A program made the position numbers and the translations under genes. The notes under the pieces are model-generated. The model searched no databases. It was given only the letters and a program-made list of their open reading frames with translations, and had not been told where the DNA came from. Shown in pieces: positions 12,788-55,446 of a stretch of DNA of 64,000 nucleotides (position 1 is the stretch's first letter; every line of letters begins with the position of its first letter). Location: the IMG/VR virus record IMGVR_UViG_3300043427_000994. One strand, 5' to 3'. Origin of the DNA: a virus. Its lineage: Duplodnaviria; Caudoviricetes.

Positions 12788-15196
12788 TTATGCGGCAGGT
12801 GTAGAAATAGTATTGCCACCAGGTTCCGCTGCCGGCGCCGCCGCAGTTTTCATACTGGCTAGTTTATCTGCTTTCTTTAGAACGTTGTTTAATCTAGTCT
12901 TAATGTCATCTGGTAAAGTTTGAACTGCTTTTTCATCTTTAGCATATTTCTGTATGATTTCTAGATTTTTCAATAATTCTGCTTTGTCCGCTGGATCCAT
13001 TTGGGCTTCGGGACTCTTTAACCAATTATATAGAGCAGCCACACCGCCTGCTATTCCGAGGGTAATAAAAGCACCTCGTTTTGTAACTTTGCCTAGAACT
13101 TTTTTACCAAATCCTTTAAGTCTTTCCCAAGCAGAAGGCTTACCAGGTTCTGGTGCTGGTGTAGGTCCTGGTCCTGGTGTAGGTCCTGGTCCTGGTACTG
13201 GTAGACCCTTTCTCATCTTCTCAATGTCAAACGAAGAAAGTTTTTCTGAAGGGTTAGCACGATTAAAATATTGATCAGGTACACCAGGAACTTTTTCCCA
13301 AGTTTTGCCACCTACTCTAATAACTCCAGGCAACGGTGGTCCTGGATCAAGTGGGCCAGCCTCACTTAAAATTTCATTTTCGGATAACAATGTTAGTTGA
13401 AGTATAGATATTTGTTCACTGGGAGTAAAATCATTAATGTTTTCAAGTACAAGTTTTTTAAGGTCTTTAATAGATAGCTCGTCAATACTTTCGGCAATCT
13501 TATATTTGCCCATGATTCTTTCTACAACAGTTAATGCCTGTACCAATTGATTCTTGGCCAAAATTGCTTTTCCGTTTTCTAATGCTTTGATTAACTCTGG
13601 AGTAATTTTGCCAGTTTCGGGCATACCAGCCATCTTCTCAAATTGTTTAATTGCGTCTGCGGTCTCAGTTCCCATCTTACCGTCTGCGCCAAATCTAGGT
13701 AATTTAAAACCTAAACCTAGTAATAACTCTTGAACTTTTTTAACATCACCGCCGCCTGTAGTTGTTGTAGGATCTGTTTTAGTATCTGTCTTATTATCTG
13801 TTTTAGTATCTGTCTTATTATCTGTCTTAGCATCTGTATCTGTTTTAGTATCAGAACTAAATTGTGCTGGGAGATTAAGGGCACGATTTGCCAATTGTAA
13901 AATTTCAGGATCATCTGGGAAATCTGTTTTCAATCCAGCGGCATAGGTCTGTAATTCTTTGTATTCTGCAGCAGTTAATTCTTCACTTAGTGTTGTACCT
14001 TCAGCAATACGTTGTATACGAGCTATTAATTCGCTCATACTTTCAGGAACAACTTTTGATTGTCCAGATGTAGTGCCTGGTGCTGGAGATGTAACTTTAG
14101 GTTGATTAGCCTTGGCTAGTAATTCTTTTACTCTGGCCAATCTTTCTTCTTTGGATTTAGCAGTTCCGTCTTTGTTGTAATCTGCTGGAAACTTTTTCTC
14201 AGGTTCAGGCTTAGTTAAACTGTAGTCAACTTTGCCTTTTGTAGGATCTTGATTTCCTGGTTTAGCAGGGTTTAAAGTAGTAGTATCGGTTTTAGACAAC
14301 GCATCGGCTTTGGCCTTCTCGTCGGCTTTGTTTTTTTCTTCCACTGCTTTGATTGCGGCTACAATTTCTGCTTTAACTGCTTCAATTTCTTTTTGTGTTT
14401 CAGGATCTTGTTTTAGTTGATCAGACATGCTGTCAAATTTTAAAACTATAGAATTAATTTCGTCAATAATTTTTTTAAGTTCGGCATTGCTATTTTGCGC
14501 ACCACCAAATCCTTTGCCACTAGTTGTGCCGTCTGGATTGATAGTTACTCTTTCTTCAACGTCTTGATCAATAATTTCGTCTTGGAATTCGTTGATCAAT
14601 GATTCAAAAATACTTGATTCAGTTTTAAATTTAAATTTATCTGGGTTTAAACCAAAAAATGTTCCACTGCCTGAAGCGGCACTGTCGGAGCCACTAGGAC
14701 CAGCAGTTTTCATTTTTTCTACAGCGGCTTTTAATTGTGCTCCTAGATCTTTAAGTTTAGGAAGATTTTCTGTTTTAAATTTTTCGTACTTTTGCTTAGT
14801 TACAACACCTTGGCTTCTAGTTCTAAGATCTTGGTCGTATTGGCCTTTTTCGTCGCCTCTAAAAGCTCGTCCTAGTGCTGTAGAAGTTTTAGCATTATCG
14901 GGGATTAAGCCTAGGTCTGCTAGGGCACGATCGGATCTTTCGCTACCAGTGGCTCCTATGCTGATTCGTCCAGGACCACCCATTCCTTGATTTACGCTCT
15001 GTTTTCCAACAAAGCCTCCACTAATAGGATCATATAACCCAGGAAGTTTGTGTTTCCATGCTAGATCGTTAAGTATTTCAGCACGAGCTTGCTCATCATT
15101 TTCTTTGCCTTTTACAGCCGCTTCAACATCGTCTAATGATATTGCTTCAGCAAGTACTACTTCGTCTAGTTTGTTTAAAATTGCTCTTATATCCAT
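12788..15196 (-). CDS. large putative internal virion protein with peptidoglycan-binding domain
   Basis: PG_binding_1-like VKKVQELL..LG...GADGKMG.ET..AIKQFE; low-complexity linkers; many (I/L)xE sites; late promoter upstream. Confidence 0.7.
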   Translation of the reverse strand: MDIRAILNKLDEVVLAEAISLDDVEAAVKGKENDEQARAEILNDLAWKHKLPGLYDPISGGFVGKQSVNQGMGGPGRISIGATGSERSDRALADLGLIPDNAKTSTALGRAFRGDEKGQYDQDLRTRSQGVVTKQKYEKFKTENLPKLKDLGAQLKAAVEKMKTAGPSGSDSAASGSGTFFGLNPDKFKFKTESSIFESLINEFQDEIIDQDVEERVTINPDGTTSGKGFGGAQNSNAELKKIIDEINSIVLKFDSMSDQLKQDPETQKEIEAVKAEIVAAIKAVEEKNKADEKAKADALSKTDTTTLNPAKPGNQDPTKGKVDYSLTKPEPEKKFPADYNKDGTAKSKEERLARVKELLAKANQPKVTSPAPGTTSGQSKVVPESMSELIARIQRIAEGTTLSEELTAAEYKELQTYAAGLKTDFPDDPEILQLANRALNLPAQFSSDTKTDTDAKTDNKTDTKTDNKTDTKTDPTTTTGGGDVKKVQELLLGLGFKLPRFGADGKMGTETADAIKQFEKMAGMPETGKITPELIKALENGKAILAKNQLVQALTVVERIMGKYKIAESIDELSIKDLKKLVLENINDFTPSEQISILQLTLLSENEILSEAGPLDPGPPLPGVIRVGGKTWEKVPGVPDQYFNRANPSEKLSSFDIEKMRKGLPVPGPGPTPGPGPTPAPEPGKPSAWERLKGFGKKVLGKVTKRGAFITLGIAGGVAALYNWLKSPEAQMDPADKAELLKNLEIIQKYAKDEKAVQTLPDDIKTRLNNVLKKADKLASMKTAAAPAAEPGGNTISTPAA
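13157..13192. repeat. 2x18-bp tandem repeat encoding PGPGPT linker
   Basis: TGGTGTAGGTCCTGGTCC duplicated. Confidence 0.85.
13773..13852. repeat. 24-bp tandem duplication plus degenerate 12-mers (TDTK/TDNK linker)
   Basis: TCTGTTTTAGTATCTGTCTTATTA x2 followed by related units. Confidence 0.9.
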
Positions 15197-15221
15197 TTTG
15201 AATCCCCAAATTCTTATCTAG

Positions 15222-15228
15222 TATTTAT
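15222..15228 (-). promoter_or_regulatory. T4-like late promoter core (ATAAATA)
   Basis: GATAAATAC ~25 nt upstream of the 15196 start; same core recurs before other late genes. Confidence 0.65.
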
Positions 15229-15230
15229 CA

Positions 15231-15362
15231 GTGCTCACTTTAACTAACAAGGGTAGCGAATCCAGTTAGTAGCCCAGCAGCCGGACACATAACCCCAAAC
15301 GGTCCTAGGGTATGTTCCTTCCTTCATAAAATAGACCGCCTAGACCGCAGCCTAGACGAGCC
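15231..15362 (-). ncRNA. candidate structured non-coding RNA
   Basis: GC-rich intergenic island in AT-rich genome with stems CCCUAG/UUGGGG, GUCCGG/CUGGGC, ACUAAC/GUUAGU and repeated GCGGUCUA; no family recognised. Confidence 0.45.
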
Positions 15363-15393
15363 AAACATTCTATGAAAGTATCTAATATTTCTT

Positions 15394-16314
15394 TCATCTT
15401 AGACCTGCGATGCGAAGCATTTGTTGTAATAAACGATTATCTTTTTCGTGGTACTCGATACTTTCACGTTTTGTACGGCCAGTGCTTGGATCCCACTTTC
15501 CCGCGCCTGGATACTGTGCTCCAGTCATGTTCCAATTTGGGTTCTTAGCTCTCCAAGCATACTCATCTTGAGATGCTGTAGTAATATTAGTAGTTCCACC
15601 TGTTCCAGTTTTTACTTGTCCCGGAACTGTGCTTAATCCAGTGTCAGTGTTAACGCCTGGTTCAGCCTGTGTTGGCTGTCCGTCGGCTGCGGTAGCAGAC
15701 TGGGCATAACCACCTTGACTTTGTTGTGCTGGTGCGTATCCGCTTGCGCCACCTGCTGGTGCTGGAGCAGGTTCAGGTTCGGGAGTTGGTTGTGGAGTCT
15801 CTGCAGGTGGATTTGGTTTGTCTGCTTGCGGCTGAGGAGTGCCAAACGCTGGACTACTACTTTGAGCAGTTACTCCTAACGCATTTTTTTCTGGAGGAGG
15901 AGTAACTGCTGGAGTTGGCGCTGGCGTTGCCGGTGTTGCTTGTTGAGCCTGAGCAGGATTGGTTATTGTAGTAGCAGTTCCTGCTGTCTGAGAACCTTTT
16001 GCAGCATCAACGGCAGGTCCAAATTGTTGTTCAGCGGCTCGTGTCTGTGGTCCCATAATACCGTCTGCTTTAATTTTAGCACCAGCCTTGATTAATTCTT
16101 GCTGTCTTGCTAGTACCTGAGGATCTTTTTTAGCAGCCGGTTTAGCAGCCGGCTTAGCCGCTGTTGTTGGCTGTGGGGTTTTCATAGCAATAGCCTGTTG
16201 AGCCATTGCAGCCGGATCCATACCTGCGCCTTGCGGCCCTGGAGTTGTAACATTTCCTGGTTTTCCAATGTTACCTGTCTGATATTCTTGTATAAGTAAA
16301 TCTCTAATTTTCAT
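15394..16314 (-). CDS. putative internal virion protein, Pro/Ala/Gln-rich, with PG-binding-like segment
   Basis: leader MKIRDLLIQE; QQELIKAG..IKADGIMGPQT; C-terminal MLRIAGL. Confidence 0.65.
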   Translation of the reverse strand: MKIRDLLIQEYQTGNIGKPGNVTTPGPQGAGMDPAAMAQQAIAMKTPQPTTAAKPAAKPAAKKDPQVLARQQELIKAGAKIKADGIMGPQTRAAEQQFGPAVDAAKGSQTAGTATTITNPAQAQQATPATPAPTPAVTPPPEKNALGVTAQSSSPAFGTPQPQADKPNPPAETPQPTPEPEPAPAPAGGASGYAPAQQSQGGYAQSATAADGQPTQAEPGVNTDTGLSTVPGQVKTGTGGTTNITTASQDEYAWRAKNPNWNMTGAQYPGAGKWDPSTGRTKRESIEYHEKDNRLLQQMLRIAGLR

Positions 16315-16467
16315 TTAATGTTCTCCGTATGGATTTTTTGGTCTGTCAGTACCGTCGTCTTCTGGAAAAACTTCGTATTTTTCTTCCTTCGCTGGTTGAC
16401 TTATATCTTTCTTTAATTCTTCTTGAGCACGTTTAATGTAATCTGCTAGTGTTTTATCTAAGATCAT
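16315..16467 (-). CDS. 50-aa hypothetical protein (not in supplied track)
   Basis: manual translation MILDKTLADYIKRAQEELKK...PEDDGTDRPKNPYGEH; ATGA overlap with dps stop; fills the gap exactly. Confidence 0.7.
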   Translation of the reverse strand: MILDKTLADYIKRAQEELKKDISQPAKEEKYEVFPEDDGTDRPKNPYGEH

Positions 16468-16898
16468 TTTAATGTAGCCCTTAACATCCAACTGTGCTTG
16501 CGATGTGCGTCTTGACGACCTGCTAAAAAATCAGCAAGACCATGTTCTCCATTACGTTCAGCAATGTCAAACACTAGTTTAAAAATATTAGCCATCCTAT
16601 CAGAGTCTTCTAATAAGATTTCTGTCATTGATCTAGCATCTGGAATTTCAGTTTCGTCATCAATTTTTGATAACATTGAAAATCTTTCAAAACTGCCAGG
16701 AGTATAACTGCCTGCTTTGCGAATGTTTTCAGCAAAGTCATCAATACTACCATAGACTTCTTCGTAGATTCCGCCAAACAGTTCGTGATACTGTTGAAAG
16801 TTTTCGCCTTCTACGTTCCAATGAAAGTACTGTGCTTTTAGATAAAAACTAAATTCACTGGCAAAAGAAATTTTAAGTGCTTTGATTAATTCATCCAT
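16464..16898 (-). CDS. dps: Dps / ferritin-like DNA protection protein
   Basis: FHWNVEG..F...HELF...YEE...IDDFAE.IR and KH.WML ferroxidase motifs. Confidence 0.92.
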   Translation of the reverse strand: MDELIKALKISFASEFSFYLKAQYFHWNVEGENFQQYHELFGGIYEEVYGSIDDFAENIRKAGSYTPGSFERFSMLSKIDDETEIPDARSMTEILLEDSDRMANIFKLVFDIAERNGEHGLADFLAGRQDAHRKHSWMLRATLK

Positions 16899-16899
16899 T

Positions 16900-17130
16900 T
16901 TAACAAACCTGTAATATTCCGTAAATTCCTGTGACTAACATAGACTTTAATGCTATATCGTCTGCTTCACTATCTAATTTATCTGTTCTAATTAAATCTT
17001 CTAATAATTCTTTGGCTTCTGCTTGACCAATCTGACCATTTTGTAATGCTTCGGCGATCTGTAATGCTACTTGAGCACGTTCTGCGGCCCAACCTTTTCC
17101 TGAATTAACACAATTTAAAAGTTCTTGCAT
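16900..17130 (-). CDS. hypothetical protein
   Basis: 76-aa helical ORF in operon. Confidence 0.7.
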   Translation of the reverse strand: MQELLNCVNSGKGWAAERAQVALQIAEALQNGQIGQAEAKELLEDLIRTDKLDSEADDIALKSMLVTGIYGILQVC

Positions 17131-17522
17131 TAGAATCTCCCTAGCACTGCTTCACTGGCACGTTTAGCCTGTGTCTGCATAATTTTCTTTTTAATGTTAC
17201 AATATGTTTCTGTACCTTGGCTGTCTTTGCTACGTTTTACAAAATCACTAACAGTATCCTGTAAAGGTTTAACTAATTTTAAAACATCTTGTTGTCTAAA
17301 ACCTTTGCTTTCGCTGTACAACTGGAACCAAAGAATATCAGTTTCAATTTTTTCTGCTTGTGGAAGATGTGGCTTAGAACAATCTAAAGTTTCAACACTG
17401 TGTCTAACATCAATTATTTTAGCACTTTGATTGTCGTCCCAGAAACTAGGAATTATGCTTTTTATATTAGCACAGCCTGATAACGAAACAACAATAGCAG
17501 TTGACAATAAAATTTTTTTCAT
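17130..17522 (-). CDS. lipoprotein
   Basis: MKK + hydrophobic core + LSGC lipobox. Confidence 0.8.
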   Translation of the reverse strand: MKKILLSTAIVVSLSGCANIKSIIPSFWDDNQSAKIIDVRHSVETLDCSKPHLPQAEKIETDILWFQLYSESKGFRQQDVLKLVKPLQDTVSDFVKRSKDSQGTETYCNIKKKIMQTQAKRASEAVLGRF

Positions 17523-18704
17523 TTAAAAATCTTGACTTTTTGATTGTTTTAATTCTTGTGCGGCTTTGTTAATAGCCCCCCACTTCCCGCCCATTGGACC
17601 TGGAAAACCAGGATTAGGACCTTGAACTCCTAATTGTTTTGCAACCTGCTCTGGAGACATACCCTTGGCTAGTAATGGTCTTGCTTTGGCAAGCGTTTCA
17701 ATATATTCTGGTGTAGCACCGCCCTCACTTAGTGAATTTGACACACTTTCTTTTGGTACGCAGTTATTAACTCTTACACCACCTTTGACTTTGGTCTTAG
17801 GATTACCTATTTTCTTTCCAGACCAGCACTTAGGATCTAAACGTGTTTTAGTTGCCTTGGCTTCTGCTAGAAAATTTTGCTCTGCTTCTTGTAGGTAATC
17901 TAAGAAAGATTTCTTACCTTCTGTAGCAGGAGCATTAACCTGAGCCATTGCTCTATTGTAAGTTGCTTCTTTATCTTTATTGCCCATAGCATATAAATCT
18001 TTACCACTTGGCGCATTATTTGGATCTTGGGTAGTCATACGTTTAGATGTTATACCTTTAGCGTTTTTATTCATGCCTACAGTAGTGGTGCCCATGTTAT
18101 ACTCTGCGTCAGTTTCTAAAGGTTTACCAGTTTTATCGTATGTTTGAGAAGTGTTCAGTGGTCCAGCCATGTATCTTACAGTGATGTTTCCTGTAACTAG
18201 GTCATGTTCTTGACTTAGTCCACTAAAACTAGGGCTTCGATACATGATTGGTTTGTTATTTTTGTCAAATTTAAACAAGCCTTGACCGCTAGTGTGTTCT
18301 TTAGAACCGTCGGGATTAAGTTTAATTGATACACCGTCTCCCATGTCATTGGCGCCGGGCTGTAGTTGTACATTGGGCAATACAGGTGCTGTAGGAACTT
18401 GGAGATTAGGTTTAAAACCTGGATCTCCGGGTTTACCTTGTTCGCCTAAATCGTTGTCTTCTTTTTTACTAGAATTATCCGCAGTCTTAACGCCATACAT
18501 CTTAGCCACTGCTTTTTCATCGTATGGCCTAAAGTCGCTGAGTTTATCTCTAGTAGCACTACCGGCCGCAACAATTTTATCAGCAACTGTTTTTAATGTA
18601 TTGTTTTCATGGACAATAGACACGAAACGGCGCATATCATTTGCGCCTTCCACTTTGCGACTAGATGCTTTGTCTAGTGCTTGTAAGATTCGTTTCATGT
18701 CCAT
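17523..18704 (-). CDS. putative internal virion protein
   Basis: modular; contains CWSG.K....K.KGGVRVNNCVP module flanked by LAE/KES/LSE sites. Confidence 0.6.
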   Translation of the reverse strand: MDMKRILQALDKASSRKVEGANDMRRFVSIVHENNTLKTVADKIVAAGSATRDKLSDFRPYDEKAVAKMYGVKTADNSSKKEDNDLGEQGKPGDPGFKPNLQVPTAPVLPNVQLQPGANDMGDGVSIKLNPDGSKEHTSGQGLFKFDKNNKPIMYRSPSFSGLSQEHDLVTGNITVRYMAGPLNTSQTYDKTGKPLETDAEYNMGTTTVGMNKNAKGITSKRMTTQDPNNAPSGKDLYAMGNKDKEATYNRAMAQVNAPATEGKKSFLDYLQEAEQNFLAEAKATKTRLDPKCWSGKKIGNPKTKVKGGVRVNNCVPKESVSNSLSEGGATPEYIETLAKARPLLAKGMSPEQVAKQLGVQGPNPGFPGPMGGKWGAINKAAQELKQSKSQDF

Positions 18705-18708
18705 GGTG

Positions 18709-20331
18709 TTATCCGTTCAAACGTGTTAGGAATTGTTTCATACGAATCAACTCGGCAGATTCGGCAATCATGCTTTCTGACATTGAGCATTCTTTCATAC
18801 CATGTACTGGGCAAGATTCACCTTTTGGTGACTCGTTGCACTTACCTGAAGATTCTTTAACTTTTTCGTCTTTCTTAGCAAAAGGATTTTCTTTCTTATC
18901 AGCAATAGCCTTTTTCATTGTTTCTTTCTTGTCGCCGTCTTTGTCCATATCTAAGAAGTCTGGCTTACCTTTGCCTGCTTTCTTTTCAGCAACAACTTTT
19001 CTAACAATACTCTTAACTAGGTCTTGGTCTTCTTTAAATGCTGGATTTGTAGGACCAGGAGTTTTTTCACTCCACTCTTTACCTTTGTTTGGACCAGAAG
19101 TTACTTTAGGATACTTGCCAGTCTTTGGATCTTTCTTAGGAGCGGCTGTAGCACCATCTGGTGGACTCATCTCGTTTGTTGGCTCTGGTGAATTTAACTC
19201 GATTTCGCTTTTATATTTTCCGGCTTTAGCTCTTTTTGCGTAGACATCCTCATCGGGTTTTTCACCGGCTGTGTCCTTCTTCATTAAATTACTGACACCC
19301 TTTCCTATTTTTCTTCCTAATTTTGAAATAGGATCAGTTGGTTCAGGCATCTTAAATCCGCCAGCAGTTCCTAAAGATTCGTCAGTTTTCTTTTTCTTTT
19401 CTGGAAGACCTTTGTGTTTTGTACTGGCAAAGTCTTCAGCATCTTTCTTGCTCATGCCTTTAGCGGCTTTGGCAACTTCTTTGCTGGCTGGCTTTTCGCC
19501 TTTCTTGGCCGCATGTACCATACCCATAAATTTTTGTTGTGCTTTGCTCACAGCCTTTTCAACTACCTGAGTAAGAGCTTCCTTAATCATTTCGTCTTTT
19601 TGTTTTTTGCTCTTGGCTGCTTTTTCTGCTTTGGCAATCTTTTCTGCGGCTTCGTCAATCTCATCCTTAACACGGATGCTGGCCACAGTCCAACCTGGAT
19701 TATCACGCTTCATACGATCACGTACTTCACCTTGACTTTCGCCTTCGTCGGCAACAGTGGTAACGCCACGAGTTTTGTTATCTTTTTCAAGTTTGACAAA
19801 GTATTGTTTACGTTCTGATTTTTCTACTTTGCCTTTTTTCTTATCGCTGGCTCGAACACCGCTGGCTTCTATTTTGGCTTCGTCTAAATCTTCTTCTTTT
19901 TTGTCTTCGGCTTTTTTGCCTTTAACGTTTTTCTTAACAGCACCTTCTAATAGTGCCTGAAGTTTTTGTTCGTATGTTGTCATAGATTCATCTACCTTTT
20001 TATCATTTAATTCTTCTTCATCGTCCATGTCCGAGATTGTATCTGTTTTCACTACTTCATCATCTGCTTCATCGGTGATATCTTCAATACTTGATGCGGT
20101 AGTTCCACCGCCAAATTTCATTTGATATTCCATATAGTGATAAACAGAATCGAGATAATCAGCAGATTTAGTAATCTTAGCCTGTACCCATCCTTCAAGG
20201 TCTTGGTTTTCGTCAATCATCTGAAATAACTTCATAGAGTACTTTGCGGCTCTATAAAGCTCAGATTTTGCCATTTGACCTTCATGATCATCTACGGGTC
20301 TTGGCACTATTGGTTTAATCTCGTCATGCAT
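18709..20331 (-). CDS. putative internal virion/scaffold-like protein, Lys/Glu-rich
   Basis: EGQMAKSEL..LEGWVQAKIT module, KAVSKAQQKFMG module, DFLDMDKDGDKKE Ca-loop-like motif, many xxE sites. Confidence 0.6.
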   Translation of the reverse strand: MHDEIKPIVPRPVDDHEGQMAKSELYRAAKYSMKLFQMIDENQDLEGWVQAKITKSADYLDSVYHYMEYQMKFGGGTTASSIEDITDEADDEVVKTDTISDMDDEEELNDKKVDESMTTYEQKLQALLEGAVKKNVKGKKAEDKKEEDLDEAKIEASGVRASDKKKGKVEKSERKQYFVKLEKDNKTRGVTTVADEGESQGEVRDRMKRDNPGWTVASIRVKDEIDEAAEKIAKAEKAAKSKKQKDEMIKEALTQVVEKAVSKAQQKFMGMVHAAKKGEKPASKEVAKAAKGMSKKDAEDFASTKHKGLPEKKKKTDESLGTAGGFKMPEPTDPISKLGRKIGKGVSNLMKKDTAGEKPDEDVYAKRAKAGKYKSEIELNSPEPTNEMSPPDGATAAPKKDPKTGKYPKVTSGPNKGKEWSEKTPGPTNPAFKEDQDLVKSIVRKVVAEKKAGKGKPDFLDMDKDGDKKETMKKAIADKKENPFAKKDEKVKESSGKCNESPKGESCPVHGMKECSMSESMIAESAELIRMKQFLTRLNG

Positions 20332-20352
20332 GGTTAAAATCTCCTGATACTG

Positions 20353-20359
20353 TATTTAT
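20353..20359 (-). promoter_or_regulatory. T4-like late promoter core
   Basis: GATAAATAC followed by AGGAG RBS and start at 20331. Confidence 0.65.
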
Positions 20360-21780
20360 CGTTTAATGCTTCCGCCGGTCAGTAGATTTGCTCCTTTAAC
20401 ATCTAGAGCATTTTTAGCAGTACCGTCTTTATTTTTAAAGGTTTTTCCAGGTTTGTTTTTATATACCGCACCTACTCCTACACTGGCAGCACTAGTAGCG
20501 CCAGCAGTGGCAGTTTCGTCAAACTTTTCAATACCGCGGCTCTGTACCCCACCTTTTTTACGTTTAGCAGCCAATTCTTCTAAACCGTGACGTACTTGTT
20601 CTAAGTTCTGTTCTAAACCCATAAACATTCCGCCTTTGGCTAATTTAGTAATCTGTAACCACATGCCTAAATCATCGCTTTCGGCCATCTGTGCTAGTTC
20701 TTGTAACTGCTTACGTGTTTGTAAAATACGTCCTTTTAGTGTCATAGGATTGGCTTTTTCGTGTCCATGTATCATAGGATCCATAGGATCGTCTGTGGCA
20801 GCAATAGGTGTTTCTTTAACAGATTGTTGAGATTTTTTATCTTTAGGATAAGCAGTATCTCCGTATTTAACTTTATCATTAACTGGACTTTGTCCCTTAA
20901 ATGCCGCTTTAATTTTTTCTAACGTTCCTGAACTATTGTCTTGTTGTTCGTGGGTAAGTTGATCAGCAACAGTTTCTTGCATTTGTCCCATTTGTACGGC
21001 TTGAGCAGCCAATCTAGGAGGAATACCCTGTTTAACTAATTCTGCTTGAACTTGTTGTTCGCTCATACCTTTGTCAAGTAAGGCTTTAGCACGTTTTGCC
21101 AGAGCCATCATATCTATTGCGCCACCTTCTGCTAGAGGATCTAATTGTCTTCCGCTGGCATATTTTTCCCAGTGTAAATGAGGCCCTGTACTAAATCCAG
21201 TACTACCAACATCACCGACACGCTCTCCTTTTTTAACTTCGTCGCCAGGTTTAACTGCTATTCTAGACAAATGCATAAATTTATGTTTTATTCCAGCAGT
21301 TGTAACTAGTTCAACTGTATTACCTGCCGAGCCCAACATTCCGGCAAATGTTATTTTGCCATCGTTAGTGGCAACTACAGGAGTACCTGTAGGTGCGGCA
21401 ATGTCAACTCCAGGATGGGGTATCCTATTACCTTTCGGACCAGTAACAATTCTACCATAGGGGCCGCTAATTCTGCCCTTAGTTGGCATTATTTCGCTGG
21501 AACTAGATGCTGTATCTTTACTAGTAGCGTCTTTGCTAGTAGTGTCTTTGCTAGTAGTGGTAGCATCTTTACCGGGACTATCTTTACTAGGTTCTTTATC
21601 TCCAAGTGAGATTCCGCTGGTATCTGCTGTATATTTTTTAATAGCGGCTCGAGTAAATGGTCCCATAAAACCGTCTGCTCCGGTAGGACCTAAATTATAG
21701 CCTTTAGATATTAAAAATTTCTGTATTTTTTGAGTTGCTAAATTAAATAAACCTTCATTAATTATATCTAGTACTTTCAT
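20356..21780 (-). CDS. peptidoglycan-binding + M23 metallopeptidase protein
   Basis: N-terminal PG-binding (IQKFLISKGY.LGP.GADG.MGP.T); HPGVD, HFMH and STGPHLHWE M23 motifs; leader MKVLDIINE. Confidence 0.85.
   Translation of the reverse strand: MKVLDIINEGLFNLATQKIQKFLISKGYNLGPTGADGFMGPFTRAAIKKYTADTSGISLGDKEPSKDSPGKDATTTSKDTTSKDATSKDTASSSSEIMPTKGRISGPYGRIVTGPKGNRIPHPGVDIAAPTGTPVVATNDGKITFAGMLGSAGNTVELVTTAGIKHKFMHLSRIAVKPGDEVKKGERVGDVGSTGFSTGPHLHWEKYASGRQLDPLAEGGAIDMMALAKRAKALLDKGMSEQQVQAELVKQGIPPRLAAQAVQMGQMQETVADQLTHEQQDNSSGTLEKIKAAFKGQSPVNDKVKYGDTAYPKDKKSQQSVKETPIAATDDPMDPMIHGHEKANPMTLKGRILQTRKQLQELAQMAESDDLGMWLQITKLAKGGMFMGLEQNLEQVRHGLEELAAKRKKGGVQSRGIEKFDETATAGATSAASVGVGAVYKNKPGKTFKNKDGTAKNALDVKGANLLTGGSIKR
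21507..21570. repeat. degenerate 15-bp repeats (SKDTT/SKDAT linker)
   Basis: GTCTTTGCTAGTAGY units. Confidence 0.7.
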
Positions 21781-23471
21781 TTCTTTTTTCCTTGACGCAT
21801 GTTAATCTGCCAGTGTGCTAGTTGTTTCTTACGTGGACTAGCACTGTCACTGCTACGTATCTTCTTTAACTGTGCTATACTCATACCTTTACTAATGCCG
21901 TGACGCTTACTATCTCCCTTATCTTGAGGATTTTTTCCATCAGCAAAGTTTTCATCTACATTATATGTTGGATCAACTTTTTGACGTCTCATACCCTTAG
22001 GCTGTTTAGGATCAACAGGATCTATATCTGTAGTGGTAAGTCCAGTTTTCATCAAAGCATCGATGTATTTGTGTTCTTCTTCCTCGCTGCCAAACGAGAT
22101 AATTGTGCTCGGAGGTCCTTTTCCAAAATCGTGTTTACCTAACCCTTTAAGATTGCTAATGTGCATTCCTAATTTGTACCAGTCATAGACATCACTGACA
22201 TCTACTTTTACAGTACCTTTTGGCATTGTAGGTTTAAATTCTGGACCATACGGAGGATCATTTACATGACGATCTTCTTCTTTTTTCTTTCCTTGACAAT
22301 GAGCACGTTGACTAAATCCTTTAGGATTGTTACAGTCAATACTACGTTTATATTTGTCACTCCATCCTTCATTAAATTGATCAGGGTGTTTTCTTCCCCA
22401 CCAACGTAATAATACACCTGCTAGAGCATTTGCTTCATTTTCATCTGGACTACCAGTTTCACCATTAAGTTCACGTGCTTCGTTTTGTTTGCGGTGTACT
22501 AGTTCGTGCGCCAGTGTACGCATGATGTCCATTTGATGACGATCTTTAACGGTAACAACAATGTTCTGTGTTTCTGGATCAAAATAACCTAACGCACTAG
22601 TCCCACTATCGGAAACTAGTTTAATACGTGGAGCCTGCTCTATTTCTAATAGTTTGATTGCCCATAGAGCAAATTCTTTAATACGTTGTTTTTTATCAGA
22701 AGTCCATGCTTCGTTGATTTGTTCTCCAACACCACCACCGTCGCCACTACCACCTTCTCCAGATGATGCTCCAATAGCACTGCTGTACCCAGTATTCACT
22801 CCGTACAGTCCATAAGGACCGGGCCCCCATGCCGCACCATATACACGTTTAGATTTACGCTTTTTCTTTTTACGTTCTTCTAATGCCGATACATCACCGT
22901 TTCCTGTAATGTGATAGGCATCAAATGTTACATCGGGATATTCTTGTTCTAATTCTTTGAATACACGCAGGTTAGTCATGGAATCGTCGTAAAGACTTAC
23001 TTGATTAAATTTTCCAGTATCTAAATAACGTCTTACCCATACTGCTTTCTTTTCAGCAGGACCCCCCTTGCCAGGCAAATTGCCTGCTCGGTGTACATGA
23101 ATCTTGCTCATGTCTATGCCGTGATCGGCAAATGTCTGTAGGAAAGTTTCTTTATCGTCAAAGTCTGCTCGGGCAGTTAACATGATAACCTTGCCGCGAG
23201 TATGATCTAATATTGTTTTTAATTCGTCAAGCATAGGACCAATTGGCTCACTTTCTTGACGAAACTTTTCAGCATTGCGGAACTCGCCAAAATCGTAGTC
23301 TTCGCCGTCTTGAAGTTCGTAGTTATTAAATTCTTGGTTAGTTAGAGAGCGCACAACTTCGCCATCTTTAACAACATTAATTTTAGCAGTCGTGTGGAAC
23401 AGTGTATCGTCTATATCAAATATAGTTAAGATACCTTTTGGCCTATCTTTGACAAAATCACTTGCTCTCAT
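21777..23471 (-). CDS. multidomain protein: HAD phosphatase + zincin HExxH domain + small modules
   Basis: FDIDDTLF, LTAR, K, YDDS HAD motifs I-IV; LAHELVH..Q...ENEAN; domains separated by INE/FNE/VDE. Confidence 0.8.
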   Translation of the reverse strand: MRASDFVKDRPKGILTIFDIDDTLFHTTAKINVVKDGEVVRSLTNQEFNNYELQDGEDYDFGEFRNAEKFRQESEPIGPMLDELKTILDHTRGKVIMLTARADFDDKETFLQTFADHGIDMSKIHVHRAGNLPGKGGPAEKKAVWVRRYLDTGKFNQVSLYDDSMTNLRVFKELEQEYPDVTFDAYHITGNGDVSALEERKKKKRKSKRVYGAAWGPGPYGLYGVNTGYSSAIGASSGEGGSGDGGGVGEQINEAWTSDKKQRIKEFALWAIKLLEIEQAPRIKLVSDSGTSALGYFDPETQNIVVTVKDRHQMDIMRTLAHELVHRKQNEARELNGETGSPDENEANALAGVLLRWWGRKHPDQFNEGWSDKYKRSIDCNNPKGFSQRAHCQGKKKEEDRHVNDPPYGPEFKPTMPKGTVKVDVSDVYDWYKLGMHISNLKGLGKHDFGKGPPSTIISFGSEEEEHKYIDALMKTGLTTTDIDPVDPKQPKGMRRQKVDPTYNVDENFADGKNPQDKGDSKRHGISKGMSIAQLKKIRSSDSASPRKKQLAHWQINMRQGKKK

Positions 23472-23673
23472 TTTTTCCTACCGGTGGTTCACCTGTTAAG
23501 TACGGTTTACTAAACCATAATTGGAACCACTCATCTGTTCCAGGTTTAATGTTATGCTTCTTTTCTAATTCTCTTTTTTCTGTGCCTGTAATACTTATGT
23601 TACTGCCGCCGTAAGGCTGGTAACCTTTAAATTCTGAAATGCCTGCTAAACGTTTAAGATCTTCTATGTTCAT
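23458..23673 (-). CDS. small putative internal virion protein
   Basis: MNIEDLKRLAGISE leader; IKPGTDEWFQLWF. Confidence 0.65.
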   Translation of the reverse strand: MNIEDLKRLAGISEFKGYQPYGGSNISITGTEKRELEKKHNIKPGTDEWFQLWFSKPYLTGEPPVGKNESK

Positions 23674-24790
23674 TATCTTTATTTCTATGCTGTCTATATG
23701 GGTTTATAAAATCTTCTTCCCATGTACCTTCTTTAACTGCCCAGGCAAAATCTATAATGCGCCCTAGGCCGCCACCTATTTCACCAAACAAATCATCAAG
23801 ATGTAACACTTCGTCAAATGTAGCACCAGTACCTTCCATTATTAAACTAACAATCCAGTCGTTATCGCTGTTATCAATGGCTTCGTCGTATTTGGACCAA
23901 AGTTTGGGATTCTCTACAATGCGTTCGCCTAATCTACCTAACTTTTTAACTAAAGAAAATTCACGATCCATGGGCTCGGCGTCTTCCGTCAAACCATATT
24001 TTTTCATTAGAGCATATATTGGGCTACCTGGCGCAGGATTTTTTCCTGACTTTAAAAAAGCATTGATCATTCCCAATTCATGTTTCTTACGCTCAGCATC
24101 TTCTCCAATGTCGTCATTGGATTTTTTCTGTTTGACTTCGCCCTTCTTTTCAGAACGTTTGGCTTCTTTTTCTGCTTTTGCTCTGTCTCTTTCTTGTTGT
24201 TTTCTTAATTTTTCTTCTTCGGCCTGCATGTAAGGTAACATATATTCTCGAACAAGATCAAAATAAGGACGACCAGCAACTGTAGTATCTGCGGGTACAC
24301 CGGAAAATTTTTCAAAGTCTTGAGGATTGTTTTCTTTAACTGCTTTGCGAACTAGACTTGCTTCACTCTTACGATCTGCTTTTTCCCATTCTATTCCGGC
24401 AAATTTATAATAACCGTGAGGACCTTCAATGCCATTTTGTTTTTGTATCATTGGTACGTAAATGTTTTTATCCTCAGGATCTGTAACTATACGTAAAATT
24501 GTGTTTTCACTGTGTTCCTTAAAAACCATAACAGCCAATGTAAACCAACTCTGTTCCGCAACTAAATGTCCTTCTATTTCAGGATACACAGTTTTCATTG
24601 CTTCAATTTTAATTTCAAAAGGTAATGGATCTTTAGGACCTTCGGTACTTTGGTTAGTGCCAATATACCAATGGGGAAACTTAGAAGCAACTATCCAAGC
24701 ATCTCGATGACCATAGTGAGGAGGATTAAACCTACCAAACATAATAGCAACATCATTGTTTTTATTTTCAAATAATTGTCTTAATCTCAT
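23654..24790 (-). CDS. HxGH (cytidyltransferase/NMNAT-like) nucleotidyltransferase
   Basis: MFGRFNPPHYGH, DPLPF..K, SEASLVR motifs; leader MRLRQLFE. Confidence 0.85.
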   Translation of the reverse strand: MRLRQLFENKNNDVAIMFGRFNPPHYGHRDAWIVASKFPHWYIGTNQSTEGPKDPLPFEIKIEAMKTVYPEIEGHLVAEQSWFTLAVMVFKEHSENTILRIVTDPEDKNIYVPMIQKQNGIEGPHGYYKFAGIEWEKADRKSEASLVRKAVKENNPQDFEKFSGVPADTTVAGRPYFDLVREYMLPYMQAEEEKLRKQQERDRAKAEKEAKRSEKKGEVKQKKSNDDIGEDAERKKHELGMINAFLKSGKNPAPGSPIYALMKKYGLTEDAEPMDREFSLVKKLGRLGERIVENPKLWSKYDEAIDNSDNDWIVSLIMEGTGATFDEVLHLDDLFGEIGGGLGRIIDFAWAVKEGTWEEDFINPYRQHRNKDNEHRRS

Positions 24791-24791
24791 A

Positions 24792-25937
24792 TTATTCCCC
24801 AGGGGTCCATCGTTTTCTAGGTACTAGTTTTACATTACCAAATCTTTTATCACTGCCAGCATAGCGAACGCGACCTTCTCCTTCGGTGTCCCAAATATCC
24901 CCTTGTTCTCCTTCAATCTGATCGATAATATCATCTTTCATATCTTGTATCATTTTCACCAGTGTAAATATTGCGCTAAGGGAGCCGTTGTATTGGGTGT
25001 TAAGAGTTTGTATTTTTTGTTGTTTAGGTTCACTGACTTTGCTAGTAGTGAGCCAATTAAAAAACATCTGTTCACTAATATTATCTAATTGTTTGGCTTT
25101 AGCAGTTTGATTTACAAACTTATATAAGATTTCTTTTAAATCACTAAGTCCTGCTTGCGGTTGTAGGAAGCCGTCAATTTGTTTGCCATGTTGTTTTAGA
25201 TATTTTTCTACATCTGTAACAGCATTGGTATCTACTGATATTGGTTTCTTATTGTATATTGGACCTAATACAATCAAGTTGCCTGTTTTATTAAATTCTT
25301 CAAAACTATCTTTAGGTTTTTGTTCTGAGTCTGGCGCACCAAAGCGATCAAACTCAGCATGTCCAACAACCATAACTTCTGCTTTGGCAATTTTCTTTCC
25401 TAATTCACTGTTCTTACGAACATGATAGCAGGTTTTTGATTTTGGATTAGGACAAAAAGTATAAACACCTTCTGAATCTAATTGTGGCGGATCTAAAAAT
25501 AATCCGTCAGCATAAACGAATCCTACAAAATCTTTCGGTGTGGCTTGATCAAACAGCGGATATAAACTAGAAAACTTTTCAGCAAATTGATCTCTCTGAG
25601 CTTTTTCTTCAGGAGTTTTAGGATTTCCACTTTGATTAGAAATAAAATCTTTAACTTCTTCTGGGCTAGTACTTTTAGCACCTCGAGCCCAACCATTGTG
25701 TCCTGCTAAGATAAGAGGACCACCTTTGGTTTCACGTCCCCAATAAATTTGAGGATTACCGTCCCACTTCATGCGAATACTTTCAGCACCTTGTTGGGTA
25801 GCAAAGTCTTTGATGTGCGATAATGCTTCCATGGTGCCCTCGCTACCATAAAAGAATACTAGATCTTCTAGGTGATTAAATGTCCGACCTAATTGTTTAG
25901 TGGCGGTTGATTCTCTAAATAGTTCTCTAAGCCTCAT
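24792..25937 (-). CDS. ligase-like covalent nucleotidyltransferase (HLED/KWDG family)
   Basis: HLEDL, KWDG (motif I KxDG), ADGLF, EGEGRV (motif IV-like), VKLV (motif V-like); leader MRLRELFRE. Confidence 0.65.
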   Translation of the reverse strand: MRLRELFRESTATKQLGRTFNHLEDLVFFYGSEGTMEALSHIKDFATQQGAESIRMKWDGNPQIYWGRETKGGPLILAGHNGWARGAKSTSPEEVKDFISNQSGNPKTPEEKAQRDQFAEKFSSLYPLFDQATPKDFVGFVYADGLFLDPPQLDSEGVYTFCPNPKSKTCYHVRKNSELGKKIAKAEVMVVGHAEFDRFGAPDSEQKPKDSFEEFNKTGNLIVLGPIYNKKPISVDTNAVTDVEKYLKQHGKQIDGFLQPQAGLSDLKEILYKFVNQTAKAKQLDNISEQMFFNWLTTSKVSEPKQQKIQTLNTQYNGSLSAIFTLVKMIQDMKDDIIDQIEGEQGDIWDTEGEGRVRYAGSDKRFGNVKLVPRKRWTPGE

Positions 25938-26776
25938 TACGTATTCCTTGATTGCTTAGGATTTTTACGATCTTTCCACCGTTTGTCAGTAGAACACCAG
26001 TAACGTCCGTGATTGCCTTCAATGAGGCCTCTCATGTATGAAAACCAATCCACTGTGTTTAATTGGTTAACATCTTCTTTTTTAATAGTATCAACTTTCC
26101 AATTTGGGTCTTCTTCTGCTCTAGCCAACAATGCCTCTGATTCGTCTTGCGGTAAAGCAGTAAGTACACTTTCTACACTGCTTAGGTCTTCAGCATTGCT
26201 ATTGTCACCGATAAGAAGTTTTGCAATTTCGTCAAGATCGTCTGTGACAAAATCTCCCTTTTTACCTTCTGCGTTTCTGCTAAACAATCCCTGCCACGCA
26301 GACCACATGTAACCTTTGCTTTTAGCCAATAGGGCTAGAATTAATTGTTTATGAACTCCCTTGTATGGACTGTCGTTGGGAATACGATGTGTATGAAACT
26401 TAGAAATTTTTTCAGCATTAGGAGTTACCATAATATCAACTTGGTGGAATTCGTCGCCTACTGGCACTCGAACGTGAACATTAATTCCACTCTGTGTTGT
26501 ATCTAATCCTTTTCCGGAAATGTAATCTTTTAATGCTCGACGACCTTCTTTGGCATCTTTGGCTTTAAAATATTCTAATACAGATTTTTCATCTACAATG
26601 ACATCCATGTCTCCACTTTGTTTACCTGGAGTTGGAGTGGCAGCACTGCCTACAGGAATAATAGTAATACCTGTTCCTTCTAAAGCACCATTAACAACAT
26701 TGGTAATTTTAGGAACATTTTTATGATCAAAAGGTGTTACATCTGGAAAGGCATTACCGCCTTCTACTAAAATCAT
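25937..26776 (-). CDS. DNA polymerase beta-superfamily nucleotidyltransferase
   Basis: VGSA...SGDMDV and QVDIM (GS, DxD, third Asp). Confidence 0.8.
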   Translation of the reverse strand: MILVEGGNAFPDVTPFDHKNVPKITNVVNGALEGTGITIIPVGSAATPTPGKQSGDMDVIVDEKSVLEYFKAKDAKEGRRALKDYISGKGLDTTQSGINVHVRVPVGDEFHQVDIMVTPNAEKISKFHTHRIPNDSPYKGVHKQLILALLAKSKGYMWSAWQGLFSRNAEGKKGDFVTDDLDEIAKLLIGDNSNAEDLSSVESVLTALPQDESEALLARAEEDPNWKVDTIKKEDVNQLNTVDWFSYMRGLIEGNHGRYWCSTDKRWKDRKNPKQSRNT

Positions 26777-27117
26777 TTATCACTCCTATCGTAGGTGCCT
26801 TTTTCTATTCTTTCTTTTTCATTATGAAACATCTTTTCGGCTAATTCTTTGATTTCAGCATCAGAAAAAATATCTTTAGGATTTTTTCTAATTTTAAATT
26901 TTTTACAGTATGAATCAATTCCTTTTTTAATACAACCGTGAAAGTGATCTTGTTGACAACCTTGTCCACTTTTTAATTTATGTTTCATATCCGATATAGC
27001 AGGATATAGAATTTTTCTATAAAACAAAGGATCGTTATTCATAAAGAACTGTAAGTCGTCAACTACATTAACGTCTTTAAGTTCATCAATTTTATCTGAA
27101 ATTTCTTTTAATAGCAT
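26773..27117 (-). CDS. hypothetical protein
   Basis: start moved to MLLKEIS, adjacent to upstream stop. Confidence 0.65.
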   Translation of the reverse strand: MLLKEISDKIDELKDVNVVDDLQFFMNNDPLFYRKILYPAISDMKHKLKSGQGCQQDHFHGCIKKGIDSYCKKFKIRKNPKDIFSDAEIKELAEKMFHNEKERIEKGTYDRSDK

Positions 27118-27118
27118 T

Positions 27119-27475
27119 TTACCATTTCCTACATGACCAGTATCTTGCTTTAGTGCGTGGACCCGGATTGTCACAATTATGACGAGCACGGAAACTGCGT
27201 CTACGAGCAGGATTAGATTTTTTGATTTTCATATTTGGGTCGCCAAAATTTACTTTGACGATGTTACCCCGAGGATTACGAACATAGACTTTGAACTTTT
27301 TAACATCGCCCTGCATGGGTTTTCCAAGAGGTACTTTTCGTCCGCGATACTCTGCTTCTTCCAATGTTTCTTCTACATTGCCGTAAAGCAGATAAAAATC
27401 ATCACCGTGGTAGGTTTCTTCTAGCCAATTTGTTACGGCACTTAGAGATTCAAATAGTTCTTTAAAGGTTTTCAT
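27119..27475 (-). CDS. small basic putative internal virion protein
   Basis: leader MKTFKELFE; AEY.GRKV..GKP...KKFKVYV...V.FG...ARRRSFRARH.C...ARYWSC. Confidence 0.7.
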   Translation of the reverse strand: MKTFKELFESLSAVTNWLEETYHGDDFYLLYGNVEETLEEAEYRGRKVPLGKPMQGDVKKFKVYVRNPRGNIVKVNFGDPNMKIKKSNPARRRSFRARHNCDNPGPRTKARYWSCRKW

Positions 27476-27498
27476 AGCGTAAACACTCGTTTATAGAG

Positions 27499-27505
27499 TA
27501 TTTAT
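27499..27505 (-). promoter_or_regulatory. T4-like late promoter core heading the internal-protein array
   Basis: CATAAATAC ~24 nt upstream of the 27475 start. Confidence 0.65.
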
Positions 27506-30388: not shown

Positions 30389-30878
30389 TTAATTTCCTTT
30401 GTTTTTTAACAGCAAGATCTAATTTTAATTTGCTTACTTTTTTAGTAAACGTAATTCCGTCTAAATGATCTATCTCATGTTGGACACACTTCGCATCGTA
30501 TCCTGATAGTGTCATTATACACTCTTTATTGTCTGTGTCAAGATATTTTACAGTCACTGAGTTTGGTCTGTTTACTTTAATAAAAAGATTTGGAAAACTA
30601 AGACAGCCCTCTTCGTCAACCGTTTCTATTTCAGCATTAACTACTTCTGGGTTAAACATAGCAAATGCCGCTTGACCTTTTGGTTTAATTACAATAACTC
30701 GACGATTAAATCCCACTTGATTAGCACTAATGCCTATGCCAAACTCGTCTTCCATTATGGCAGTCATTACTCTTTCAATTTCTTTAGGATCTAAGTCGCA
30801 GTTAAAATCAAACGGTTCTAATTTTGTGTAAAGTATTGGATCTGGATCTATTCTAAGTTGAAACTCACTAATTAGCAT
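30372..30878 (-). CDS. def: peptide deformylase
   Basis: [13 protein letters not shown] and QHEIDHLDG motifs. Confidence 0.97.
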
Positions 30879-31692: not shown

Positions 31693-31724
31693 AAAAGGTA
31701 TAGTAAAATTATACTATACCTTTT
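31693..31724 (-). terminator. terminator of lysis operon
   Basis: perfect 13-bp inverted repeat AAAAGGTATAGTA/TACTATACCTTTT, 6-nt loop, U-tract. Confidence 0.8.
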
Positions 31725-31736
31725 AATTTATGTCAA
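31708..31736 (-). promoter_or_regulatory. sigma70-type promoter for dnaJ-def-clpA
   Basis: TTGACA-17 nt-TATAAT; -10 box lies in the terminator loop. Confidence 0.85.
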
Positions 31737-55376: not shown

Positions 55377-55446
55377 TGAATGCTCCAAAAAAGACTTTCT
55401 AGCATTATTTAGCCGAAAAAAAACATAAGCCTAATGTAAATACAAG

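Follow-up and report, generated by a model that had tools for sequence, protein, structure and literature searches.

The stretch of DNA analysed here, referred to as the window, comprises 64,000 nucleotides (nt) of the IMG/VR record IMGVR_UViG_3300043427_000994 (Caudoviricetes), and its source is a large (giant) aquatic phage related to T4. The family-B DNA polymerase of this phage shares 44-52% identity with its counterparts in the jumbo phages Phosso, Atu_ph07, and PBECO4, one 270-kb relative was rated 71% complete by CheckV, and a 381,653-bp contig also encodes an identical copy of the DUF6267 protein described below. Every gene between 12.8 and 34.6 kb of the window lies on the minus strand, and this region contains an operon for a predicted minimal family-X-like (PolX-like) polymerase, a ligase-like protein of the DUF6267 family, and a nucleotidyltransferase with an HxGH motif, which very probably form a real functional unit of three enzymes. 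A preliminary description, made from the letters alone, had reported four near-adjacent enzymes (a HAD phosphatase, an HxGH enzyme, a KxDG ligase-like protein, and a Pol-beta nucleotidyltransferase) with one 71-amino acid (aa) open reading frame (ORF) between them. Indeed, 21777-26776 on the minus strand holds exactly five ORFs that abut or overlap by 1-20 nt, and all four fold assignments are supported, that of the KxDG protein as ligase-like and the last now refined to PolX-like. Two small genes (27119-27475 and 26773-27117) open the operon ahead of the PolX-like gene, a gene for an M23 peptidoglycan peptidase (20356-21780) comes after the five ORFs, and chaperone genes lie on one side of the operon and DNA-polymerase genes on the other. 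The features of the operon are as follows.

27498..27505, minus strand: late-promoter-like element ATAAATAC (core of ATAGCATAAATACTCTA), 23 nt upstream of the operon's first gene
27119..27475, minus strand: g118, 118 aa, leader MKTFKELFE/S, phrog_7595, basic Cys-containing C-terminal module
26773..27117, minus strand: g138, 114 aa from an internal ATG, MLLKE/ISD, conserved directly upstream of PolX
25937..26776, minus strand: predicted minimal PolX-like nucleotidyltransferase, 279 aa, palm and thumb, variable C-terminal tail
24792..25937, minus strand: DUF6267 protein, 381 aa, modelled ligase-like fold, helical insert 237-341, leader MRLRE/LFRE
23654..24790, minus strand: HIGH-motif nucleotidyltransferase, 378 aa, leader MRLRQLFE/N
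24146-24790, minus strand: NadM/NMNAT-like domain, residues 1-215 of the 378-aa protein
23458..23673, minus strand: g71, conserved 71-aa protein, N-terminus MNIEDLKRLAGISE/F
22872..23471, minus strand: HAD phosphatase domain, residues 1-200 of the 564-aa protein, all four HAD motifs
21777..22871, minus strand: rest of the 564-aa protein, with a Gly-rich linker, a zincin-like HExxH domain, a Cys module, and two further modules

The case for a three-enzyme unit is made by gene fusions and synteny. Fusions were counted in 150 representatives of the DUF6267 clusters (50% identity), using domain hidden Markov models built from the alignments of this analysis. A PolX-like domain is fused to DUF6267 in 35 of them and an HxGH domain in at least 15, six of which are PolX-DUF6267-HxGH proteins that follow the gene order of the window. 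Adjacency was counted across 80 related IMG/VR viral loci. In 44 of 74 testable cases the PolX gene is the immediate upstream neighbour of DUF6267, and in 58 of 73 the HxGH gene is its immediate downstream neighbour. The DUF6267-HxGH pair is kept even in distant Kyanoviridae (Synechococcus phage S-RSM4 and Methylophilales phage Melnitz), where it sits, without leaders, among primase, helicase, UvsX, and polymerase genes. The functional linkage proposed for the four enzymes is therefore borne out by fusions and synteny for PolX, DUF6267, and HxGH, while the HAD protein joins them in one fusion, the single polypeptide HxGH-HAD-PolX-DUF6267 of P0355 (locus L005), and is otherwise loosely attached. 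The small genes are also widespread, with g71, a real and conserved gene, present in 44/86 loci and g138 in 51/86, the latter having only unnamed phage clusters as neighbours in the ESM Atlas.

Alignment showed the catalytic residues to be conserved across homologues in all four enzyme families. In the 279-aa protein, G43, S44, D56, D58, and D114 are invariant in a 41-sequence alignment, and the motifs GS...SGDMDV (D56, D58) and QVD (D114) are PolX-like, corresponding to the palm G-S...D-x-D signature and the third carboxylate. An AlphaFold2 (AF2) model with a predicted local distance difference test score (pLDDT) of 85.6 was matched by Foldseek to Pol lambda (3.6e-8) and to Pol beta. An exhaustive VIA search aligned it with the palm and thumb of Pol beta (Z 11.8 over 172 residues) and with PolX of African swine fever virus (ASFV; Z 10.8 over 161/176 residues), and TdT and bacterial PolX were also matched, while RNA-specific terminal transferases (TUTases) align only over the palm of about 98 residues. 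Its Atlas neighbours include minimal viral PolX clusters (TM 0.67-0.69) and DUF6267 fusions, and some structural neighbours are fused to PD-(D/E)xK nucleases. The sequence itself has no Pfam or NCBIfam match at E <= 0.1, with the PolX palm, thumb, and fingers and the RlaP-family PF10127 among the families covered, and no PHROG match; a profile of the family searched against PDB sequences returned noise only. Like ASFV PolX, the protein is too short to hold the fingers and 8-kDa lyase domains. Because palm and thumb both align with Pol beta and ASFV PolX, and RNA nucleotidyltransferases align on the palm only, we describe it as a predicted minimal family-X-like polymerase, which is more specific than the earlier label of Pol-beta nucleotidyltransferase. 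An identity as RlaP, a CCA-adding enzyme, or a poly(A) enzyme is not favoured, as the palm-thumb match opposes it.

The 381-aa protein matches Pfam PF19782 (DUF6267) at 1e-14, its sole significant Pfam match. Among 60 diverse sequences, down to 26% identity, H22, K57, D59, G60, G67, K334, G355, and K370 are invariant, and E24, D25, W58 (>=90%), R68, D144, and E354 nearly so. These residues include a KxDG motif I with its invariant lysine, as well as conserved downstream motifs at D144, E354-G355 (GEGxV; PEGYVLHK in the cyanophage version), and K370, which may correspond to ligase motifs III, IV, and V. When the AF2 model (pLDDT 95.2) was searched with VIA, 19 of the 20 best chains were RNA or DNA ligases, with Z scores of 5.1-7.1 over 142-190 residues that fall below 8, the tool's comfort line. 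The highest scores belong to NgrRnl (7.1), REL1 (6.6), T4 Rnl2 (6.5), and Trl1 (~6), followed by DNA ligases (5.0-5.9), and capping enzymes rank below the ligases (4.2-4.8). Foldseek against the PDB returned nothing at E <= 0.001, with ligases recurring among the weak rows; hhalign of the DUF6267 alignment with T4 Rnl2 gave no match (probability 0.1), and neither of the Rnl-type families PF09414 and PF09511 matched the protein. We therefore term DUF6267 ligase-like only, on the basis of modelled fold and motifs, because the Z scores are modest and sequence methods see no relationship; it is not a proven member of the superfamily. The modelled architecture is RNA-ligase-like. It lacks the OB domain with motif VI, stopping some 10 residues past the motif V-like strand, and its only extra domain is a 105-residue helical insert (237-341) between the IIIa-like and IV-like motifs.

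Two other roles for DUF6267 were considered. That of the phage's replicative DNA ligase was rejected, as a canonical ATP-dependent DNA ligase (PF01068; 445-451 aa) is present about 50 kb away in four of five partial relative genomes. A part in an mRNA capping or tailing kit is opposed by the lower scores of capping enzymes and the lack of both an OB domain and a methyltransferase. The family is abundant, with 1141 proteins found by a word-indexed search, in 417 clusters at 50% identity, all of them viral as far as recorded. In one 65-member viral cluster of the Atlas, DUF6267 is fused to a Cu/Zn superoxide dismutase (SOD). A literature search found no paper mentioning DUF6267, the survey of Burroughs and Aravind (2016; NAR 44:8525) lying outside its reach.

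The third enzyme, of 378 aa, matches the cytidyltransferase families phrog_3041 (7e-15) and phrog_395 (1e-10) and TIGR00125 (3.7e-5). The family consensus, PGRFxPxHxGH ... SATxxR (profile A4, 18 divergent members), reads GRFNPPHYGH and EASLVR in the window protein, and after residue 215 a Lys/Glu-rich linker leads to a C-terminal domain without assigned function. Searched against the PDB, the profile found NadM-type NMNAT structures best (2qjt at 2.8e-9, 1f9a at 1.6e-8), with PPAT at about 1e-7, in keeping with the earlier NMNAT-like reading of the HxGH enzyme. The HxGH domain thus appears closest to NadM-type NMNAT, with PPAT only a little behind. Its Atlas neighbours are phage-only CTP_transf_like clusters, and relatives of the protein are fused to PAP2, to Zeta-toxin/AAA_33 kinases, and to NTP_transf_2.

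The last of the five ORFs encodes a mosaic protein of 564 aa (21777-23471, minus strand), each module of which occurs separately or shuffles independently among relatives. The earlier assignment of a DxDxT phosphatase stands for its N-terminal part, where the HAD motifs DxDxT (D19, D21, T23), T99, K142, and D162/D163 are invariant or nearly so in 10 homologues (alignment A3), but it overlooked a zincin-like HExxH domain behind the HAD domain (~22377-22724, minus strand; residues ~250-365). This second domain conserves RTLAHELVH.KQ...ENEA and matches DUF6782 (1e-3), M78 (0.04), and Hvo_1808 (3e-8). Family matches of the HAD domain are weak (phrog_415 'polynucleotide kinase' at 1.3e-4; DUF2608 and Acid_phosphat_B), its Atlas neighbours are phage-specific clusters near Acid_phosphat_B, DUF2608, HAD_SAK_1, T5 dNMPase, and HAD_PNKP, and its profile returned only noise against PDB sequences. 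No kinase domain was found in the 564-aa protein or elsewhere in the operon. The 120 closest longer HAD relatives are fused to HExxH (37), GH19 with LysM (~50), dCMP deaminase, Nudix (MutT-like), or pterin-4a dehydratase domains, and the HAD domain of P0355 is only 27% identical to that of the window. Because these closest relatives join peptidase, GH19/LysM, deaminase, or Nudix domains and not the trio, a role of the predicted HAD phosphatase as a polynucleotide 3'-phosphatase is unproven.

Further along the 564-aa protein, a basic Cys module of 33 residues, KYKRSIDCNNPKGFSQRAHCQG (residues 366-399; 22275-22376, minus strand), is an independently shuffled unit. Its relatives, ...RHNCDNPGPRTKARYWSC and GRYWCSTDKRWK, stand at the C-termini of g118 (27119-27475) and of the PolX-like protein, and in P0263 such a module lies between the leader and the DUF6267 core. 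At locus L003 the zincin domain is a separate gene just upstream of a PolX-DUF6267-HxGH fusion gene.

Late expression of the operon, as the preliminary description had it, is supported by a conserved late-promoter-like element. There are six matches to ATAAATAC in the window, all on the coding strand, five of which lie 7-30 nt upstream of a start codon, and these start codons include those of two tail-type (tail-fibre-like) genes and of the operon's first gene. The overall count is not enriched (6 found against 4.7 expected), and the signal resides in position and strand. The extended form, ATAGCATAAATACTCTA, is retained ahead of the orthologous gene of g118 in 6/6 distinct related loci. The canonical T4 late promoter, TATAAATA, has only two matches in the window and is not enriched. 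Unlike these late-type elements, perfect or near-perfect sigma70-type promoters (TTGACA-17-TATAAT) at 31708-31736, 30514-30541, and 12700-12728 (all on the minus strand) precede DnaJ, deformylase, and ClpA genes and a small gene before the DNA polymerase.

Proteins of the block share short N-terminal leaders (MKTFKELFE, MRLRQLFE, MRLRELFRE, MKVLDIINE, and MKIRDLLIQE). This leader motif, a pattern chosen after inspection and hence with an inflated p-value, occurs in 6-8 of the 16 genes at 12.8-27.5 kb and in none of the 60 other genes of the window. The leaders are conserved in orthologues as peptides and not as DNA, ending in (L/I)xE sites of the T4 gp21 type; a recent DNA duplication was rejected as their common origin, since codons differ while the peptides agree. 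Within the DUF6267 family, 86 representatives have a core that starts near the N-terminus; at least 40 of them carry a leader, 39 of these with (L/I/V)xE, while 16 of the 86 begin directly at the core, from which we regard the leader as a detachable module. The claim that most of the enzymes carry head-type leaders holds in that the leaders are conserved and resemble the T4 capsid-targeting sequence (CTS); it fails for the HAD protein, whose N-terminus (MRASDFVKD) is a degenerate leader with no Glu and no (L/I)xE site, and for PolX, whose N-terminus (MILVE-GGN) belongs to the conserved core. The T4 CTS reads MKTYQEFIAE (PMC8442874), where targeting is governed by residues 4 and 7 and cleavage by gp21 by residues 8 and 10 (PMC9026906). 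The operon leaders (~8-12 residues) match it in length, hydrophobic spacing, and (L/I)xE end, and a gp21-type protease, Peptidase_S77, is encoded in three of the five partial relative genomes. CTS-like leaders with gp21-type sites suggest that the proteins probably enter the prohead and are then delivered together with the genome, and we hold virion delivery of the leader-bearing enzymes tentatively, at close to an even balance.

A further short motif, (D/E)LKRLAGI/L, is found at N-termini, for example that of g71 (23458-23673, minus strand), and MLRIAGLR or RIKQLSGL stand at the extreme C-termini of the product of 15394-16314 (minus strand) and of the tails of PolX homologues (alignment A1). 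Motifs of the (D/E)LKRLAGI/L type could represent another signal for sorting or processing; C-terminal cleavage also occurs in T4 Alt (PMC9026906).

Taken together, the habitual fusion of a ligase-fold enzyme to a polymerase bearing a template-binding thumb suggests that nicks or gaps in duplex nucleic acid are filled and sealed. That the trio fills and seals polynucleotides is the probable function, and if so, DNA is somewhat favoured over tRNA as the main substrate. The reading we prefer in full is a template-directed kit for nick and gap repair, probably packaged with the genome, to which we give a probability of roughly 45%. In this mechanism the minimal PolX-like enzyme would add nucleotides at the 3'-OH in a gap or at a nick, and DUF6267, as an unrecognised branch of the lysine-nucleotidyl ligase superfamily, would seal the nick. 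The NadM/NMNAT-like enzyme would supply or recycle the nucleotide cofactor, one option being that NAD+ is rebuilt from NMN and ATP. The substrate would most likely be the phage's own DNA, possibly by way of a short ribonucleotide patch, and the HAD-zincin protein, a weak member, could clean 3'-phosphate ends. The leader-bearing proteins would be loaded into the prohead, have their leaders cut at (L/I)xE, and be injected with the DNA. What the enzymes do, on which substrate they act, how the cofactor ties in, and that the proteins are packaged are all inferred, and the anti-defence role that the preliminary description envisaged for the enzyme set would be a further step of the same kind.

The lean toward duplex DNA follows from the thumb shared with PolX, as RNA-specific nucleotidyltransferases align over the palm only, and from the position of the Kyanoviridae pair in a replication module, the PD-(D/E)xK-fused neighbours, the Cu/Zn-SOD fusions of DUF6267, and the lack of an operon kinase. 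The sealing of 3'-ribo nicks after ribonucleotide addition has been proposed for Rnl5-type ligases and for LigD. A hybrid scheme of this sort, in which ribonucleotide patching precedes 3'-ribo nick sealing, is our proposal for how the DNA and RNA evidence might be reconciled. For the NMNAT-like partner, the regeneration of NAD+ for an NAD+-dependent ligase would be the most economical idea. In its strongest form, DUF6267 would be a new ligase family with PolX and NMNAT as obligate partners, using NMN-to-NAD+ recycling or ligase charging, and the kit would be packed by its CTS, injected, and put to mending nicks and gaps of the virion DNA before phage gene expression. We consider this full conjunction rather improbable, but if true, it would make for NMNAT-coupled sealing that is independent of the host NAD+ pool, and for the first case of a bacteriophage carrying a DNA repair kit in its virion.

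Several findings weigh against the repair kit as a whole. The fold match of DUF6267 is modest (Z 5-7.1, under 8), no sequence method ties the family to ligases (its profile found no ligase among PDB sequences), and its best fold matches, together with the missing OB domain, point to RNA rather than DNA ligases, while relatives already possess a canonical ATP-dependent DNA ligase. For the HxGH profile, PPAT structures score nearly as well as NMNAT, and the part of this enzyme in repair is speculative. A HAD lies within 8 kb in only 10 of 47 loci, and none of the 120 closest longer relatives of the window's HAD domain is fused to the PolX/DUF6267/HxGH trio. This domain therefore appears, by sequence comparison, to be a promiscuous module and the weakest member of the set rather than a fixed part of the unit, and healing is the least secure part of "heal and seal". 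As for packaging, the leader pattern was defined post hoc and the cyanophage orthologues are leaderless, so that packaging is not intrinsic to the enzyme module.

The preliminary description had drawn an analogy with tRNA repair by T4 Pnk and Rnl1. In an RNA (tRNA) heal-and-seal system, the HAD domain would strip the 3'-phosphates that anticodon nucleases leave behind, the Pol-beta-fold enzyme would restore nucleotides in the manner of RlaP, which has been shown to add one or two nucleoside monophosphates to damaged RNA (PMC12776372), DUF6267 would be an RNA ligase, and the NMNAT-like enzyme would support NAD+ steps or counter NAD+ depletion. The RNA ligases NgrRnl, REL1, Rnl2, and Trl1 that head the DUF6267 fold matches, with no OB domain, speak for such a role. 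No Rnl2-type ligase was found in the five partial relative genomes, so that an RNA ligase would have no obvious redundancy there, and the canonical DNA ligase of relatives is separate. Clusters of HAD_SAK_1, the 'Swiss-army-knife' RNA repair HAD, are among the feature neighbours of the HAD domain, and RNA ligase, HAD, and Pol-beta nucleotidyltransferase together are a described theme of jumbo phages (PMC7824862). However, the analogy is weakened by the operon itself, which has no polynucleotide kinase even though anticodon-nuclease products carry 5'-OH ends (an AAA_33 kinase is found elsewhere in relatives), and whose nucleotidyltransferase has no RlaP PF10127 match and bears the template-binding PolX thumb that RNA-end nucleotidyltransferases lack. 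No tRNA genes were found in the window, and the Kyanoviridae pair keeps to a replication module. We regard tRNA repair by the operon as possible but not favoured, and on balance unlikely. A set for nucleotide or cofactor chemistry is less probable again, and indeed very doubtful. Here, the NMNAT-like enzyme would rebuild NAD+ against NADases, the HAD domain would be a dNMP or NMN nucleotidase, and the KxDG and Pol-beta-fold proteins would nucleotidylate small molecules or proteins. The nearness of the HxGH profile to NMNAT, the fusions of HAD relatives to dCMP deaminase and Nudix and their resemblance to T5 dNMPase clusters, and the fusions of HxGH relatives to PAP2, Zeta-toxin/AAA_33 kinases, and NTP_transf_2 would all fit, but the commonest fusion partner of DUF6267 is the PolX-like palm-thumb domain. 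Every known relative of that domain works on the 3' ends of polynucleotides, and every known relative of the ligase-like fold on their 5' ends.

A closer competitor, quite possible although not the likelier case, keeps the repair function but makes the enzymes intracellular rather than virion cargo. The shared N-terminus would then be some other signal, such as a tag for translation or assembly, or a degron linked to the neighbouring ClpA and deformylase genes. The leaderless cyanophage orthologues and the 16/86 representatives without a leader are in line with this, as are the location of the operon between chaperone and DNA-polymerase genes and an early sigma70-like consensus promoter upstream that could read through. 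Against it weigh the close resemblance of the leader to the T4 CTS in the three respects given above, the presence in the same block of an M23 peptidoglycan peptidase and a zincin, typical ejected cargo, and the late-type promoter in common with tail-fibre-like genes.

Individual elements of the operon have precedents. One close parallel is ASFV, where Pol X (174 aa) is likewise a minimal palm-thumb enzyme paired with a DNA ligase, and eukaryotic single-strand-break repair by Pol beta, Lig3, and PNKP follows the same logic of clean, fill, and seal, the window operon also having a HAD-type phosphatase. In contrast to both, the ligase candidate of the window is DUF6267, which lacks both OB and DNA-binding domains and has no similarity to DNA ligases that sequence comparison can detect, an NMNAT-like protein is added as an obligate third partner, and no AP endonuclease or lyase domain was seen. 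Sets of RNA ligase, HAD, and RlaP or Pol-beta nucleotidyltransferase have been described in jumbo phages (Iyer et al., 2021; PMC7824862). These sets, and T4 Pnk with Rnl1/Rnl2, share with the window the combination of ligase superfamily, HAD, and Pol-beta-superfamily nucleotidyltransferase in a large phage, along with an RNA-ligase-like architecture; however, the window operon has no kinase domain, its nucleotidyltransferase is PolX-like and not RlaP, its ligase candidate is neither Rnl1 nor Rnl2, and it adds the NMNAT-like partner and the CTS-like leaders. The earlier statement that no characterised system has this composition must accordingly be narrowed, as ligase, HAD, and Pol-beta nucleotidyltransferase are known together in jumbo phages (PMC7824862), and it stands for this ligase family and the PolX/NMNAT combination, which we found in no paper.

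The structural match closest to DUF6267, the Rnl5-type ligase NgrRnl of Naegleria (PDB 5cot; Z 7.1 over 185 residues), is a stand-alone nucleotidyltransferase domain without an OB domain. Identity between the two is ~10%, and DUF6267 differs in the 105-residue insert between IIIa and IV and in a conserved N-terminal HxED element. Bacterial LigD unites a polymerase, a 3'-phosphoesterase (PE), and a ligase in one polypeptide. The fused or operonic arrangement of polymerase, end cleaning, and ligase is the same in the window, with ribonucleotide addition followed by 3'-ribo nick sealing as a possible common theme, but the fold families all differ (AEP primase-polymerase versus PolX, PE domain versus HAD, OB-containing ligase versus DUF6267). 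The packaging side recalls T4 IPI-IPIII and Alt, CTS cargo that is processed by gp21 and injected. The leader is similarly short and ends in (L/I)xE (MKTYQEFIAE against MKTFKELFE, MRLRQLFE, and MKVLDIINE), expression appears to be late, the gene block is hyperplastic and shuffled, and the lineage has a protease of the gp21 type. Unlike the T4 internal proteins, the cargo of the window phage would consist of large enzymes (polymerase, ligase, nucleotidyltransferase, phosphatase, and peptidases).

New here are the ligase family, the constancy with which it is paired with a minimal PolX and with an NMNAT-like enzyme, and the CTS-like leaders in giant phages. If DUF6267 is a ligase, it would represent a new branch of a heavily used enzyme superfamily, with partners that hint at an uncommon way of handling the cofactor. 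Should the leaders prove to be capsid-targeting signals, the DNA of giant aquatic phages would arrive in the cell together with a polymerase-ligase kit, in parallel with the repair enzymes carried in particles of giant eukaryotic viruses. This would be relevant to the question of how the genomes of phages outside cells withstand sunlight and oxidative damage, and the leaders would be natural cargo-loading signals usable in phage engineering.

A few observations concern the surroundings of the operon. PADLOC gave no meaningful match on the window. In the partial relative genomes G001-G005 (loci L087-L096), a stand-alone AAA_33 kinase of 162 aa lies ~10 kb from the canonical DNA ligase and could be the missing polynucleotide or nucleotide kinase. 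An ORF of 3091 aa (46113-55388, minus strand) contains repeated tail-fibre-type segments (phrog_5342 at 5e-67, phrog_4527 at 2e-64). The leader-bearing block also spans 12788-21780 (minus strand), which encodes an 802-aa protein with an endolysin-like segment, proteins of 306 and 393 aa, a 540-aa DUF3008 protein, and the 474-aa M23 peptidase with a PG-binding domain, and which gives the impression of a hyperplastic array whose modular proteins may be ejected.

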